Source: an uncultured candidate division Zixibacteria bacterium (GTDB lineage: Bacteria; Zixibacteria; MSB-5A5; UBA10806). Taken from it: a DNA stretch of 64,000 nt. The translations under genes were made by a program, and so were the position numbers. Shown here in pieces: positions 3,813 through 17,897 of the stretch. The notes beneath the pieces were generated by a model. It was not told the DNA's origin. It did not search any database and saw nothing but the letters and a program-made list of their open reading frames with translations. The stretch covers positions 96,001-160,000 of the forward strand of contig CAWDFP010000011.1 of NCBI GenBank assembly GCA_963801605.1. The letters run 5' to 3'. Each line of letters starts with the position of its first letter. The stretch's first letter is position 1.

Positions 3813-4899
3813 ATGGAATTTACTTTAGAAAAACGAATCGCCCACCGGGCAATTGTCAACGGCAAAGAGGTCCTGATCTTCAGCTCTAACGATTACCTGG
3901 GGCTATCGGCTCATCCAGCGGTGTTGCAGGCCGCATCCGAGGCCGCAGTGCGATATGGCGTTGGAACAGGCGGAGCGCCCGGCACTACCGGCACTACCCA
4001 GATCCATACAGAGCTATCGGCAGAAGTTGCGTCTTTTCAGTCGCGAAAGAATGCTGCTCTTTTCCCCTCCGGCTACCAGGCCAACCAGGCGATCCATCAG
4101 GCTCTCGATAGTGACCGCACCATTTTCTATGTCGATAACCGCCATCACCCGTCGGCCATAGATGGAGTGAAACTGGCCAAAAATTCGAGGATGGTGCGAT
4201 TCGATCATAACAATCTCGATATTCTCAAGGGGGCGATCCTGGCTCATCGGGGGATGGTCAATATCGTTTCGATCCCGTCGGTCTTTACGGTTGACGGCGA
4301 TATTGCGCCGCTCGATCGACTTTATGAGATGAAACAGAAGCTTGGCTTGATGCTAATTTTCGATGAAGCGCACGCCACCGGCTGCCTGGGAAAAACGGGA
4401 CGGGGGATAGAGGAGCATTTCAATCTAATCGGCGCCGCTGATTTTATCATGGGGACATTCTCCAAATCGCTGGGTTCGCAGGGTGGATTTCTGGCATACA
4501 ACGATGACGCTGCTAAGCTGTTGCGCGCTCATTTCCGCACGCTTAGAATATTCGACGTCGCTGTCAGCCGTATCGGCTGCCGCCGCGTTGAAAGCGTTAC
4601 GGCTTCTAGAAAGCGACCCTACGCTGATGGCATCTCTTCGTCACGTTAAACAAACGATTATCGAAAATTGCCAGGCGCTTGATATTCCTCTCATTTCCAA
4701 AGAGAGCATGATTATGCTCCTACCAAACGATAATTGCGACGCCCTGCAAGCGCGCTTATTTGAGGCCGGTTTTCTGACAATAGTAGTGAAGGCTCAACTG
4801 GCATCGGGCTTGCTTCATTGCTTGCGCATTATTCCGATGGCCACCCAAAGCGACGACGAGATCAAATCGTTCGCTCAAGCCATAAAGGCGAATCTATAA
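3813..4899 (+). CDS. PLP-dependent alpha-oxoamine synthase (BioF/KBL-like); frameshift near 4530
   Basis: SNDYLGL, FDEAHATG and TFSKSLG motifs. The C-terminal part lies in ORF 4483..4899. Confidence 0.8.
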
Positions 4900-8270: not shown

Positions 8271-9185
8271 ATGTCTGATTCGCGTCCTCTACAGGAAGAT
8301 TACCGCCGTTATCTCGACCCGGCTACAGTCAGTAAGCTCTCATCCATCGAGCTTAAGGCCCGGCTCGTGGTTGAGGGGTTTATCGTGGGACTGCACCGCT
8401 CTCCCTATCATGGATTTTCGGTGGAATTCGCCGAACATCGTCAATATATGCCGGGCGATGATTTTAAGCATATCGATTGGAAAGTTTACGGTAAGTCGGA
8501 TCGTTTTTATATCAAGCAGTTCGAGGAAGAAACCAATCTCAAGGCCTATATCCTCTTAGATGCGTCCCGCTCAATGGGCTATAAATCTAACGGTATCAGC
8601 AAGTTGGAGTATGGCTCCTATCTTGCGGCCTCGTTAGCGTACCTAATGCTTCGTCAGCAGGATGCTCCCGGGTTGCTCATCTATGATGAAAAAATCCGAA
8701 GCTATATCCCACCCAAGGGCGCTAGATCCCATATTACACCGATACTAAGACAGCTCAATAATACCGAGCCATCCAATCAAACAGACGCCGGCGTGGCTTT
8801 TCATGAGTTGGCTGAGCGAATCAAGCGCCGGGGTTTGATCATAGTTATCTCAGACCTGCTTGACGACCCCGACAAGCTTCTTATGGGCCTCAAACATTTC
8901 CGGCACCGACAGCACGAAGTTATCGTTTTTCAAATACTGGATCCTTTCGAACGCAGTTTCGAATTTAGTACTGAAGCTCGTTTTCGTGATATGGAAACTG
9001 GCCGGGAGTTGTTGACCGATCCCTGGCAAGTCAGGAAGGAGTATACCAAACGTCTGGAGGAGTATATCGGGCAGATCAGCCGCGCCTGCCGCGATTCGAG
9101 AATAGATTATCAACTTCTGGACACATCGATCCCGTTCGACCGGGCGCTTTTTGGATACTTGTCAAAACGATCAAAATTAGGTTGA
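8271..9185 (+). CDS. DUF58 protein (MoxR/VWA-associated)
   Basis: GLHRSPYHGFSVEFAEHRQYMPGDD, IDWKVYGK, KQFEEETN, LDASRSM. Confidence 0.92.
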   Translation: MSDSRPLQEDYRRYLDPATVSKLSSIELKARLVVEGFIVGLHRSPYHGFSVEFAEHRQYMPGDDFKHIDWKVYGKSDRFYIKQFEEETNLKAYILLDASRSMGYKSNGISKLEYGSYLAASLAYLMLRQQDAPGLLIYDEKIRSYIPPKGARSHITPILRQLNNTEPSNQTDAGVAFHELAERIKRRGLIIVISDLLDDPDKLLMGLKHFRHRQHEVIVFQILDPFERSFEFSTEARFRDMETGRELLTDPWQVRKEYTKRLEEYIGQISRACRDSRIDYQLLDTSIPFDRALFGYLSKRSKLG

Positions 9186-9252
9186 CGAATTGAAAAATAT
9201 TGCGATATTAACAAAGATGTAATTTCTGTCAAGTAAGAGTAGGAGCAGTAGT

Positions 9253-10134
9253 ATGAAGAAGTTTCTGGTATCATTTGTCTTTCTCGCCTCTCTGCCCGCC
9301 GTTTCGCTGGCCGGGCCCCAAATGTCGGTGCCTGAGACACATTGGGATTACGGCAATGTGCCCCAAAACAGCATCCTGACGCACGATTACTGGATCAGAA
9401 ACATAGGTGACGATACCTTGAGGATTATAGATGTCAAACCTGGCTGAGGATGCACCTCAGCGCCAATCCAGAAAAAGGCATTGGCGCCGGGCGATTCCAC
9501 GGTCGTGGAATTAATTTTCGGAACCAAGACATCAAGAGGAAGAATTACCAAGAACGCCAAGATTACCTGTAACGACTCTACCAGGGCATCGCTGACAATC
9601 GATTTTGCAGCCAATGTCATCCTGGATCCGGATACTGTTTCGGTAGTAAAGTATACGCCGCAGCAAATAACATTCAGCAAGGATACGACCAAATGCGCGG
9701 TGACTGTCGCAAACAATGACTCTCTTCAGGCCAACCTCGTCATGGTCGGGATACCTGTTGATAATATCAGCGCCAAGGTAAAGAACTCGGCGATTAAAAA
9801 GGGAAAAAACACAAAAATAGAATTTGAATGGAAAGGCACAGAGCCTGAATATGACGCCAACCATGTTTTAACGTTTGCGACAGGTCTTCCGGATAAAGAA
9901 AGTGCGCGTTTTTCAGTGCCGTACACTATCAGAGGTACCAAAGGCCCGAAACCCGCGACGAAACCTCAGAATTCGGCGCCAATAAAGGCCAAAGACCTCG
10001 GTAAGACCGCAGTACCCGGAACCGTTGGGCAAGTGCAGCCCCCGGGGGTAAGTGTCAAACCGTTAAAACAGATTACGCCAGATAGCATTAACACAGTTAA
10101 GCCAATGCCTAACACGAAGTGGCCGCCTAAATAG
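9253..10134 (+). CDS. Exported DUF1573-domain protein, 293 aa, with in-frame UGA at codon 65 (candidate selenocysteine, U-G-C-T)
   Basis: ORFs 9253..9447 and 9481..10134 share a frame and are separated only by TGA 9445-9447. Read-through gives IRNIGDDTLRIIDVKPG-U-GCTSAP...LAPGDST, matching the DUF1573 'NxGxxxLxI..CGCT..I/LxPG' pattern. Confidence 0.8.
9445..9487 (+). promoter_or_regulatory. Putative bacterial SECIS element
   Basis: Stem GCGCCAAT (9460-9467)/ATTGGCGC (9480-9487) plus CC/GG closing the loop AGAAAAA. The stem starts 12 nt after the UGA. Confidence 0.6.
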
Positions 10135-10158
10135 GCGTTTAGATAGCTTTTATCGATG

Positions 10159-10190
10159 AGCCGCGAATTAAGTTCAATCGCGGCTTTTTT
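10159..10190 (+). terminator. Intrinsic terminator
   Basis: AGCCGCGA/TCGCGGCT stem followed by a T run. Confidence 0.7.
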
Positions 10191-10300
10191 ATTGGGAAAA
10201 GACTTTGAGATTTTACAAAACATATCATAAGCTATCGAAGTTGATAATGAACAAATATGATATTTAGTTTGGTTTACATAAAACCTAAGGAGAGATAAAA

Positions 10301-11514
10301 ATGAATTTCGAGCTCAACGATGATCAGCAATCGGTCCAGAAGCTTTGCAGGGAGTTTGCGGCCAAAAATGTTACACCCAATATCCGCGAAAACGACCGGG
10401 CGCAGAAATTCGATCCATCGATTATGACCAGAATGGCAGAATCTGATCTCTTAGGTCTTTGCCTGCCTGAAAAATATGGCGGGGCCGGAATGGATTATAT
10501 CTCCCTGGGATTAGCCTGTGAGGAATTGGAATATGCCGATACATCGGCCCGCGTGATACTCTCGGTGCATATCGGCCTTAATTCGCTAACTCTCCTTTCA
10601 TGGGGCAACAAATTCCAAAAAGAGAAATATCTCATACCGCAGGCCAAAGGAGAGAAGATCGCCAGTTTCGGCCTGACCGAACCGAACGCCGGTTCCGATG
10701 CAGTTGGAATTCAATCAACCGCTGTGAAAAAGGGGAATAAGTATATCTTGAACGGCGAGAAGATGTGGATCAGCTTAGCCGATGTAGCCGATAATTTTCT
10801 CGTCTTTGCCTGGACTGATCTCGAAAAAAAGAGAAAGCGCGACCACACCGGCATATCGGCTTTTATTATCGAAAGGGCCTTTTCCGGCGTGACCACCGCT
10901 ACAATCCACGGCAAGCTTGGGGTGCGGGCCGGCAATACCGGCTCAATCGCCATGCAGGATGTTGAAGTGCCGTCGGAGAATCTTCTGGGCAACGAGGGCG
11001 AGGGTTTCAAGATCGCCATGTTCTGCCTGGAGCAGGGACGATACACCGTAGCAGCCGGTTCAACAGGATTGATCAGGGCATGTCTCGACGCCAGTGTCAC
11101 CTATTCCCACACCCGTAAAACTTTCGATATGCCGATTGCCGAACATCAGCTTGGTCAAGGAGATGATTGCCGGCATGGCAGCGGGATATGAGTACTCAAG
11201 GCTTCTCTGGCTAAAAGCCGGATGGCTGAAAAACATGGGGGAGAGAGCTACCAGAGAAACCGCCCTGGCCAAGTGGATCGCCTGCGAGCAGGCTGAAAAA
11301 GCGGCTGCCGATGCCGTTCAGGTGCATGGAGCGTACGGATTCTCAGATGAATATCCGGTGGAGCGCTTCTATCGCAATTCCAAGGGGGCCTCGATTTATG
11401 AGGGCACCCGCGAAATCCAGAAACTGATGCAAGCCGATTATGCGCTCGGGTTTCCGAAAGGATAAGCCTCGCCGCTGCAACCTGCCTGCCTGGCCGTTTG
11501 GGAATGATGTATAA
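10301..11514 (+). CDS. Acyl-CoA dehydrogenase; frameshifts near 11150 and 11455
   Basis: FGLTEPNAGSD, LNGEKMWI, QVHGAYG and IYEGTREIQ motifs. The tail DKPRRCNLPAWPF is in a shifted frame. Confidence 0.9.
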
Positions 11515-12772: not shown

Positions 12773-14645
12773 GTGCCAATGGCCTCCGACCTGTACAATG
12801 AGACTGCGTATCGGCAATTTGTCGAGAACGTAAGGCCAACTTTCAAAGGCAGTAATATAGAAGAATATTCGATGCGCAAGCTGCGCGCTCTGTCGATCAA
12901 AACCGGCACAAAAACCATATTCGGCTCGTGGGGCTGGCGCAGCGCCGTTTCCAGCCGTATCGGCCCGCGGACAGTTTATCTCGGCTCGCCGTCGGTGCGG
13001 CTGCCCAAGCTGACCGATCTGATGCGCGGCTTTGTCGAAAATGCCCCCGAGGAACTGCATAAAGTGTCTCAGGTGATGCGCGATCTGCCGTTTGTCCATG
13101 TCCGTCGCCAGATGGGCGATAACCCCGAATTCAATCCGATTTGCAATCTGTATATGTCGGTGTCCGATCCCAAGCTTTACCGCACCGCCTACCTGTGGGC
13201 CAACACCATGGGCGATGTCAACCCCAAACGCCCCGGCCCGGAATTCACCATGATCCATATCCCCGAGGAACATCCGATTCGTCAGCAGGTGCTCTCACTT
13301 CCCGAATACAATATGAATATCTGCCTGGGAAGCGACTATGTCGGCGAGGATAAGAAGGGATTCCTTCGGCAGGCGATGTGGGCCGCCGACCAGCGCGGCA
13401 TGCTGGGTCTTCACGCCGGCACCAAAGTTGTCTTCATCAAAGACCCGATATCGGGCAAGCTCAGAAAATTCGGCGTGCTGTTGTTCGGTCTCTCGGCCAC
13501 CGGTAAATCGACCTGGTCATGCCATCAGCTTGGGCTGAACTACAAGGAAGGCGAGATGACCCAGGTCTGCCAGGATGATATCGTTTTCCTGCGCAAGGAT
13601 GGTTCCGCATTCGGCTCCGAGCGCGGCTTCTATGTCAAGACCGATGTCGATGTCAAGCTGCAGGAGGCGATGTATTACGCTCTGATCGATAAGACCGCTC
13701 TGTATGATAATGTCATGATCGATGCCAACGGCCGTCCCGATTTCCTCGATGAGCGTCTCAACGCCAACGGCCGCGCGGTGATCAGAAAAGATAAGGTAGC
13801 CATCAAGGTCGGACGAAAACTGGTTCCGATCGAGTCCGAGAGCATCAATCTGCCGCCGCTCGAGGAGCTCGACGGCCTGGCGTTCGCGTTTATTACGCGC
13901 CGTCATACGATCATGCCGTTTGCGCAGAGGCTGAATCTGGAGCAGGCGGCGTTGGCTTATCTCTGGGGCGAATCGACTCACAGCTACGCTTCCGAGCCGG
14001 CCAAGGCGGGCGAATCGGTCCGCACAGTCGGCACCGATCCGTTTATCATCGGTTCGCGCGGCTTCAAGGTCAACCGCTTCTATGAGATCATCAAGGGTCT
14101 CGATGCCAAGTACCCCGGCAAGCTGATGTTCTTCCAGTACAACACCGGCGGCGTCGGCGAGATTTTGGAACGCACCGAGGTTGGCGGGCAGATCAAGAAG
14201 AATCTGGTGCGCAAGGCGGTGCGAGTGCCAATCGAACTCATGGCGGCGATTGCAGCGCGGCGATCTGCGCGGCACCAATAAGTATCAAGCAGTGCATTTT
14301 CGGCACCGAGGAGGTTATCGAGACCGCGGCGGCGACCTGACCCCGTTTGACCCGCACAAGTTCTATTCGCAGGAGCAGATCGATTTCTATCTGACCGATA
14401 TTGTCAATGGCCGCAAGAAATTCACCGACGAGATCAACGCCGAGGGGCTGAACCCCGATATCCTCAAGGCGGCTGAGAAATCGTTCGCCGATCTCGCCCA
14501 AGGAGAAGCCGAAATTTGTCTCTCCGGGCATGGATCTCGGCAAGGGCGCGACAGAAGCCGGGGATCGACACCTCGCCACCCGCGTTCGATCTTCTCCGAC
14601 CTCCCGCCGGTCACCCGACCGCCGCGACGGTTTGCGGGGAGGTAG
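12773..14645 (+). CDS. pckA: Phosphoenolpyruvate carboxykinase (ATP)-like; C-terminus scrambled by frameshifts
   Basis: YVGEDKKG, GLHAG, LFGLSATGKST P-loop, QDD, GSERGFYVKT, NGRA, YNTG. End coordinate is approximate. Confidence 0.75.
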
Positions 14646-16746: not shown

Positions 16747-17052
16747 ATGAAGGGGATTCGGCGGCAATATGATCGGGCCTTTAAGCTTTCGGCGGTGAGG
16801 CTTCTATTAAGTTCGGATAAGCCACTGATACAGGTCGCCAGGGGGCTTGGTATCTCTGGTAGCATGCTTCGCAGATGGCGGGAGCAGGTCCAGGAGCGTG
16901 GAGGAGAAGCATTCTCTGAGTCAGGCCGAATGGAGCGAAGGGAGATATTGCGTCTTCAGCGGGAGAATCGGGAGCTTCGCCGGGAGAATGAGATTCTAAA
17001 AAAAACTCTGGGCTTCGAGAAGCCGGCAAAAGGGAGAGGTACCGGGCAATAG
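16747..17052 (+). CDS. IS3 OrfA (HTH plus leucine zipper)
   Basis: RRQYDRAFKLSAV...VARGLGIS..LRRW; LQRENRELRRENEILKK. Confidence 0.92.
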   Translation: MKGIRRQYDRAFKLSAVRLLLSSDKPLIQVARGLGISGSMLRRWREQVQERGGEAFSESGRMERREILRLQRENRELRRENEILKKTLGFEKPAKGRGTGQ

Positions 17053-17897
17053 CGGCCCAGGCGGGTGAATATTCGGTTCGGGAGTTGTGCAGTCATTTAG
17101 GTGTATCCGCCAGTGGTTATTATGGCTGGCTGAGGGGTGGGACAAGCAGGCGACAGCGGGAGAACGAGGGGCTTTTGAAAGCGATCAGGGAGATTCACAA
17201 ATCAGTTCGAGAGACATATGGCAGTCCTCGGATGAGGGCGGAGCTTCTCTCCCGGGGCTACTTATGCGGGCACAACCGGGTGGCTAGACTCATGAGCGAG
17301 GGTGGTATTATATCCAGAATGACGCTACGCTTTAGACGGCTTACCAAGGCCGGGAAGAGGCGTCCTGCGGCACCCAATCTTTTAGACAGGAAGTTTGCAG
17401 TTGCCACGGCCAACTCTGTCTGGGCTTCGGATATTACCTACATTCCCACTTCCGAGGGGTTTTTATACTTGGCGGTAGTAATGGATCTGTACAGCCGAAC
17501 AGTGGTTGGTTGGGGGATGTCATCGAGGCTGACGCCTGACCTAGTTGCATCTGCTTTACGACAGGCCATAGATAAGCGAGAGATTAAACCGGGGCTCGTG
17601 CATCACAGTGATCGGGACATGCTCTACTCCAGCTACCTCTATCAGGGTCTTCTCTCAGACAATGAGATTACCTGTAGTATGAGCCGCAAGGGCAATTGTT
17701 ATGATAATGCGGTGGTGGAATCGTTCTTTGGGAGCCTAAAGAATGAGTTTTGCGCTTTCGAGCACTTTGAAAGCCGAAACGAAGCCACCATAAGGATATT
17801 TGAGTGGATTGAAGCGTTTTACAATAGAGTCAGACGCCATTCAACATTGGGATATTTAAGCCCGTTTGACTACGAGAGCAAAAACGCTTATGCTTAA
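16998..17897 (+). CDS. IS3 OrfB (DDE transposase), joined to OrfA by -1 frameshift at the A8 run 16998-17005
   Basis: The -1 frame is open from the A run onward; YGSPR, WASDITY, HHSD, CYDNAVVESFF, FYNRVRRHSTLGY. Confidence 0.92.
   Translation, partial: KKNSGLREAGKRERYRAIAAQAGEYSVRELCSHLGVSASGYYGWLRGGTSRRQRENEGLLKAIREIHKSVRETYGSPRMRAELLSRGYLCGHNRVARLMSEGGIISRMTLRFRRLTKAGKRRPAAPNLLDRKFAVATANSVWASDITYIPTSEGFLYLAVVMDLYSRTVVGWGMSSRLTPDLVASALRQAIDKREIKPGLVHHSDRDMLYSSYLYQGLLSDNEITCSMSRKGNCYDNAVVESFFGSLKNEFCAFEHFESRNEATIRIFEWIEAFYNRVRRHSTLGYLSPFDYESKNAYA

Follow-up and report, generated by a model that had tools for sequence, protein, structure and literature searches.

An in-frame UGA at the motif cysteine of a Zixibacteria DUF1573 gene: an addition to a predicted selenoprotein family

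Lists of predicted selenoproteins have included DUF1573 proteins since 2007. Table 2 of Zhang and Gladyshev (2007; PMC1976440) gives OS_HP2 as a new selenoprotein family with two sequences, an entry that PMC2398784 ties to pfam07610 and a UxC motif. The selenoprotein list of PMC9312934 includes a 'DUF1573 domain-containing protein' with the motif UGC, and a 2026 review places the DUF1573 UGC family under 'predicted with high confidence' (PMC13188914). Given these entries, the idea that the gene described below represents a new selenoprotein family is rejected, and the find is sound but ordinary. A literature search to which most subscription papers were closed returned no experimental study of the DUF1573/OS_HP2 family.

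The gene lies in a 64,000-nt stretch of DNA from an uncultured Zixibacteria bacterium, the whole of which is called the window here. An initial annotation, made from the sequence, had proposed an exported DUF1573 selenoprotein with a SECIS-like hairpin. Based on the evidence presented below, we put the probability that the UGA at codon 65 is decoded as selenocysteine (Sec) at roughly 95%.

The in-frame UGA and its downstream hairpin

The initial annotation described two same-frame open reading frames (ORFs) parted by one TGA that falls on a conserved cysteine, and it expected gene callers to split the resulting 293-aa gene; all three points are borne out. The frame at 9253–10134 (+) contains a single TGA, at codon 65 (9445–9447, +), around which it reads IIDVKPG-U-GCTSAP, giving a 293-aa product with a U-G-C motif and one predicted Sec. 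The match to DUF1573 (PF07610) runs straight across this codon (residues 25–121; Pfam E-value 4.9e-21; 75 bits against a gathering score of 26.1), and the TGA occupies the position of the first Cys of the CGC motif of the domain, a column that is either TGA or TGY in all 42 copies compared. Its partner in the U-x-C motif, Cys67 (9451–9453, +), is never TGA in the 85 motif-bearing domain matches. An AGGAG ribosome-binding site (9241–9245, +) precedes the ATG by 7 nt, and most orthologues have a similar GGAG or GAGG. Gene callers do split the gene, as the database protein P0004 (217 aa) is identical to the part 3′ of the TGA. Lengths of 202–221 aa were found for 11 of the 21 protein-database matches, and the four of these 11 that were fetched all start past the motif. 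Two DNA read runs covered 10% and 6% of words, respectively; their contigs reach only parts of the DUF58 gene upstream, and none extends over 9205–10200.

Just downstream of the TGA lies a SECIS-like hairpin (9460–9487, +). As the initial annotation had pointed out, a perfect 8-bp stem, formed by GCGCCAAT (9460–9467) and ATTGGCGC (9480–9487), begins 12 nt past the TGA and encloses the loop AGAAAAA (9470–9476), the first nucleotide of which is 22 nt past the codon; two further pairs extend the stem. The published bSECIS model calls for a loop of 3–9 nt, a stem of 4–16 bp, a G in loop position 1 or 2, a distance of 16–37 nt to the loop and a minimum free energy of −7.5 kcal/mol or lower (PMC13188914). 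With a 7-nt loop, a stem of 10 bp, G at loop position 2, a distance of 22 nt and −15.3 kcal/mol, the hairpin fits this model. A loose version of the rule has low specificity when applied to the same-frame junctions of the genome, passing 15 of 61 TGA, 11 of 67 TAA and 5 of 31 TAG junctions; the lowest energy among the TGA junctions listed belongs to the DUF1573 gene. In shuffling tests, the 56-nt stretch starting at the TGA (−24.3 kcal/mol) reached a z-score of −4.3, and none of 200 shuffles was equally stable. The corresponding values were −1.8 and 8/200 for the 43 nt past the TGA alone, and −2.6 and 1/200 for the 36-nt hairpin.

Across related genes, stable folding is favoured in UGA copies and not in Cys copies. 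Against shuffles of synonymous codons, 16 of 26 TGA copies but none of 16 Cys copies fold significantly better (p≤0.05; the genomes are related and hence not independent), with mean z-scores of −2.3 and −0.2, respectively; the other ten TGA copies do no better than their shuffles. Two tandem Sec/Cys pairs show this contrast within a single locus, where the stable fold of the Sec copy is missing from its Cys neighbour (−23.1 versus −11.1 and −24.2 versus −3.9 kcal/mol). Over 17 orthologues, the 8-bp stem is 85% paired, a value reached in 5 of 500 shuffles, whereas control stems slid along the alignment reach 25–52%. Only one of the eight pairs changes on both sides (columns 22/37, six rows), through a synonymous Leu codon change following an Ile-to-Val replacement, and the covariation score is equalled by 27 of 500 shuffles. 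An RNAalifold consensus of the orthologues did not recover the stem and returned a different, weak fold. TGAGG and CCTCA, which the initial annotation suggested could pair across the codon, are indeed present in the sequence, yet this pairing is absent from the predicted lowest-energy folds, and just 2 of the 17 orthologues in the alignment preserve CCTCA exactly; as a conserved element the pairing is rejected.

Protein architecture, gene neighbourhood and possible function

The product probably carries a cleavable signal peptide (9253–9312, +), reading as MKK, a hydrophobic core and an S-L-A cleavage site with no lipobox Cys and coinciding with a predicted helix at residues 3–17; export is thus likely. 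An AlphaFold2 model built on a 44-row alignment (mean pLDDT 84) shows this N-terminal helix, two β-sandwich domains and a low-confidence tail. The first domain (9325–9615, +) corresponds to the DUF1573 match and is predicted with pLDDT above 90 as a HYDIN/VesB-like Ig domain, in which the U-G-C motif would occupy the turn that follows strand three. A second, tandem Ig domain of predicted PapD/MSP/ASH-like fold (9631–9942, +) is without the motif and matches 1row_B (Z 9.5), 9c72_A (Z 8.6) and 3q48_B (Z 8.5). The Pro/Lys-rich tail (9955–10131, +) varies in the alignment, has pLDDT under 50 for residues 252–290 and is probably disordered. Sequence and model are consistent with what the initial annotation proposed: a signal peptide, an Ig-like fold and a UxC motif. 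Positions 65 and 67 are Cys or Sec in every one of the 44 aligned rows, and Cys107 and Cys149 lie outside the invariant or nearly invariant columns. A search of solved structures with the single sequence gave no match. A search for longer fused forms scored 7996 candidates and yielded three large proteins with multiple Ig domains but no redox fusion, which is weak evidence.

Upstream of the gene lies a DUF58 (VWA) gene (8271–9185, +; PF01882, E 1.3e-52), with which the initial annotation considered co-transcription probable. This is possible, and read-through from DUF58 could occur because there is no strong terminator between the two genes. Yet it is not needed, since the DUF1573 gene has a σ70-like promoter site of its own (TTGACG, 16 nt, GATATT; 9182–9209, +) and is followed by an intrinsic-terminator-like hairpin with a T run (10158–10190, +; −15.1 kcal/mol, z −3.1, 1/200 shuffles), whose 11-nt loop exceeded the 8-nt limit of a first terminator scan that missed it. 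A motif scan found the promoter-like site in all 19 loci examined, 61–94 nt upstream of the start, as TTGAC(N), 16 nt and [G/T]ATATT in 18 and with TATTTT in one, around a spacer of variable sequence; five of these loci are without DUF58 upstream. DUF58 directly precedes the gene in the window, in L041, in L103 and in all 12 same-family genomes for which flanks were fetched, but in none of the eight loci of other families fetched alongside. Wherever DUF58 is present in the family, the TGA within the TTGAC of the −35 box doubles as the DUF58 stop codon, and this overlap alone could hold both genes together. A functional link to DUF58 is unsupported, given that the adjacency is limited to one family among those fetched and that the promoter-like site persists where DUF58 is missing.

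On its other side, the gene is flanked by an acyl-CoA dehydrogenase gene, and a pair of ORFs resembling IS3-type transposase orfA/orfB in translation lies further along the window (16747–17897). Neighbour scans of 62 and 24 proteins drew on about 40 loci, in which many neighbours matched no family. A TlpA-like redoxin gene is directly downstream in eight loci from about two lineages (L056, L058, L061, L070, L071, L078, L098 and L099); MauE/DoxX (two cases), rhodanese (one) and YajC (two) were also seen. In the first six of these loci, several of which are Krumholzibacteriia or Latescibacteria records, the redoxin follows a pair of DUF1573 genes, Cys+Sec in four and Cys+Cys in two. In Chitinophagales/Niastella (L073, L075, L077 and L080), the Cys form is preceded by nusB and, in the cases scanned, followed by yajC. 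Caspase-domain (Peptidase_C14) genes follow the Cys form in L044, L046 and L047 and, as cysteine proteases, are possible clients.

If position 65 is Sec, periplasmic thiol-disulfide exchange through Sec65-Gly-Cys67 seems to us somewhat better than an even bet. The gene would be transcribed from its own σ70 promoter, SelB acting on the hairpin 12 nt downstream would deliver Sec-tRNA to UGA65, and the signal peptide would direct export of the 293-aa product. Sec65 would then serve as the nucleophile and form a selenenyl-sulfide with Cys67, and the pair would shuffle or reduce the disulfides of clients held on the Ig scaffold by a chemistry akin to that of CsgC and nDsbD, with a TlpA-type redoxin recycling the protein. 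A redox role is favoured by the invariant CxC and by the redoxin, MauE/DoxX and rhodanese genes beside homologues, even though the redoxin-adjacent loci come from so few lineages and none of these genes is beside the one at 9253–10134. CsgC provides a precedent: its Ig fold carries a redox-active CxC with a potential of −139 mV, next to −167 mV for a CGC tripeptide (PMC3173608). Because of this precedent and the redoxin-type neighbours, we infer thiol-disulfide exchange to be the best of three conceivable mechanisms, ahead of metal binding and of a structural role.

Metal binding, an improbable alternative, would have the U-G-C of the selenoprotein hold a soft metal or metalloid (Hg, As(III), Cu or Zn) in the periplasm, with no disulfide exchange. 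Selenol-thiol pairs suit soft metals, and a predicted metal-binding DUF2284 protein is encoded next to the family member in L099. Metals are also involved in about 70% of the predicted ligand interactions of selenoprotein families (PMC13188914). Yet the site offers only two conserved ligands, with Cys107 and Cys149 outside the nearly invariant columns, and no metal-resistance genes were seen beside the gene or its family orthologues.

We regard as equally doubtful a structural or chaperone-like job, in which the selenoprotein would be a PapD-type envelope-assembly scaffold and the Se–S bond would merely stabilise or switch the fold. Such an effect has a parallel in CsgC, which with its CxC oxidised melts at 92 instead of 66°C (PMC3173608). 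The fold matches include PapD chaperones, ASH/MSP domains and S-layer domains, the Porphyromonas gingivalis protein 2QSV and domain 2 do without the motif, and other Zixibacteria have tandem arrays of 2–4 copies. What speaks against a purely structural role, besides the redoxin and MauE neighbours, is that UGA and hairpin are found at the first Cys only, in 30 of 85 motif-bearing matches: keeping a costly UGA and hairpin at one Cys is the pattern of a catalytic nucleophile in selenoproteins.

Relatives, selenocysteine machinery and the source assembly

A DUF1573 homologue is present in 60 of 61 genomes searched, and the UGA/Cys pairs expected of a selenoprotein family are plentiful. Across 42 copies in 32 loci (30 from this search and two holding paralogues of the same genome), column 65 is TGA in 26, TGC or TGT in 16, and never TAA or TAG. 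In each of the 13 same-family genomes and each of the three same-order genomes fetched, this codon is TGA in the best match. Among 90 domain matches in 62 further loci and the genome itself, the first Cys is TGA in 30 and Cys in 55, five lack the motif, and the second Cys is never TGA. The closest named homologues are from Zixibacteria, records of Krumholzibacteriia and of Latescibacteria contain Sec copies as well, and the two closest database proteins (79% and 73%) are Cys forms.

The source genome (G000; 3.06 Mb, 87% complete) holds two DUF1573 paralogues. One, at C6:3220 in locus L008 (C6:2956–4077, +), is a second Sec gene of 373 aa that reads NVKAS-U-GCTA, has a SECIS-like hairpin and is followed by a UbiD/SIR2/TPR-domain ORF. 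The other, at C6:1733543 (region C6:1732945–1733709, −; L009:4945–5727), is a Cys form with PTCGCT and no stable hairpin, after which come a cohesin-like ORF and two TldD/PmbA genes. A further in-frame TGA with a hairpin, at C6:1327865 (+; FFAEW-U-SACKQ), likely belongs to a TlpA/thioredoxin-like selenoprotein.

Decoding of UGA as Sec requires a dedicated machinery, and selA, selB, selC and selD are all present. A tRNA-Sec (68.7 bits, anticodon UCA), selD with a single in-frame TGA of its own, selA (over the cut-off) and selB cluster at C6:1293255–1299696. In the source assembly, selB is in two frames, with the break at about C6:1298435; this frameshift is likely an assembly indel, because selB is whole in 5/5 relatives tested, and more than one frame is also needed for the essential rpoB and for 12 of the 43 genes to which proteins of relatives were matched. 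The window, too, contains genes broken into two or three frames (3813–4899, 10301–11465 and 12773–14645), a pattern that fits assembly indels, in agreement with the initial annotation, which had set such lesions apart from the frame-keeping TGA. In view of these multi-frame genes, gene counts from this assembly need care. Among the 61 genomes, selA was found in 59. One of the two others is 52% complete and has no DUF1573 match; the second (G055), rated 100% complete, contains a tRNA-Sec, a TGA-bearing selD and a TGA copy of DUF1573, but selA and selB were not found, reflecting either an assembly gap or recent loss. A general recoding of UGA to Trp or Gly is rejected: the genome has a tRNA-Trp with anticodon CCA beside its tRNA-Sec, in-frame stops are few in the 43 matched genes, with no widespread TGA, and DUF58 itself ends in TGA.

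That the TGA is instead a sequencing error or a nonsense mutation leaving a pseudogene or two genes, or that the strain has ceased to insert Sec through a broken selB, is very unlikely: the multi-frame genes, the frameshifted selB and the Cys of the closest database proteins would suit it, but TGA stands at the same codon in all 13 genomes of the family and in a metagenome contig of independent origin, the observed errors are of the indel type, and selD has retained its in-frame TGA.

Tandem DUF1573 copies occur in several genomes, with one Sec gene among Cys genes. Five loci (L042, L048, L100, L101 and L102) have three to four paralogues each, exactly one of them a Sec copy, in arrays convergent on genes for GWxTD-domain and ABC-transporter (MacB/FtsX, ABC-2) proteins. 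A tree of the 44 rows needs nine changes between Sec and Cys, eight of them forced by well-supported branches. Five Cys rows fall inside a clade (support 100/99) with 16 Sec rows, although four of the five are known as protein records with unseen codons; when metagenomes were scanned with the nearest protein of the Cys form, a single, more distant locus came up, and the scan did not recover the codons of P0002, P0003, P0005 and P0008. Two tandem Cys copies nest within the Sec lineage, as a tree keeping the 13 ingroup Sec rows together and apart from them was rejected (AU test, p=0.002, on a quick tree of 20 rows with DNA, omitting 24 rows and adding the two copies of L103, and with the grouping named after the first tree). 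The stable hairpin fold is absent from both of these Cys copies. The simplest reading of these sequences suggests duplication followed by reversion from Sec to Cys; alternatively, gene conversion between neighbouring copies may have produced the pattern. In bacteria, changes from Sec to Cys are described as rare and, for the most part, confined to FdhA and SelD (PMC13188914).

From this, a wider but tentative picture can be drawn, which we consider possible though less likely than not: DUF1573 proteins would be widespread periplasmic oxidoreductases on a PapD-like scaffold, and Zixibacteria would keep duplicated Sec copies and reverted, SECIS-less Cys copies side by side, using selenium in the main enzyme and sulfur as a backup. 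If true, this would amount to repeated Sec-to-Cys change in bacteria and would provide naturally occurring Sec/Cys pairs, matched at about 60% identity. Such tandem pairs, together with the redoxin and MauE neighbours found in other lineages, make it possible to test directly whether the protein is a redox enzyme acting after export and what its selenium contributes.

Comparison with known systems

The DUF1573 gene opens no new kind of system. It corrects an annotation, as the databases carry only the 217-aa post-UGA piece, stripped of signal peptide and active motif, and it extends a predicted family to a lineage in which the Sec form is nearly fixed and which the NCBIfam model misses; supplements of the cited papers may list Zixibacteria.

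In structure, domain 1 is closest to 2QSV, an uncharacterised two-domain protein of P. gingivalis, which is both the best structural match (2qsv_A; Z 11.5, rmsd 1.8 over 102 residues, 24% identity) and the best sequence-profile match (E 2.3e-7). Unlike the protein described here, 2QSV has no Sec and no CxC in the aligned stretch, so a DUF1573-type fold can serve without CxC. The fold of both domains is shared with PapD-like, ASH and MSP proteins (CupB2, CsuC, HYDIN, CEP192 and the Ig domain of VesB; Z 7–9.6), but identities are 5–18% and no pilus or usher genes were seen near the DUF1573 gene. We know of no U/C-x-C motif in proteins with these domains. Like the predicted protein, CsgC and nDsbD combine an Ig-like fold in the periplasm with a pair of redox Cys residues, which in CsgC is a CxC at the passage from the BC loop to strand C. 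They differ in being single-domain proteins without Sec or a sequence match, and both CsgC and DsbD are absent among the 50 fold matches listed; the likeness is an analogy of mechanism only.

Finally, OS_HP2 is the system to which the gene belongs. Both share PF07610, Sec at the first position of U-G-C, a SECIS-like hairpin just downstream and widespread Cys homologues, while the gene described here stands apart through its Zixibacteria-like branch, two Ig domains, long Pro/Lys tail and position behind DUF58. The NCBIfam model NF041425 (OS_HP2_seleno) is matched by all 44 aligned rows (best E 4.9e-27) and gives the protein 64.9 bits (E 6.2e-18; model positions 1–97 of 98), under its curated cut-off of 100. 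Given the fit to PF07610 and UGC and this score, the protein is a member of the DUF1573 UGC kind as reviewed, outside the narrower NCBI model, and thus a well-supported addition to a catalogued, so far only predicted, selenoprotein family.
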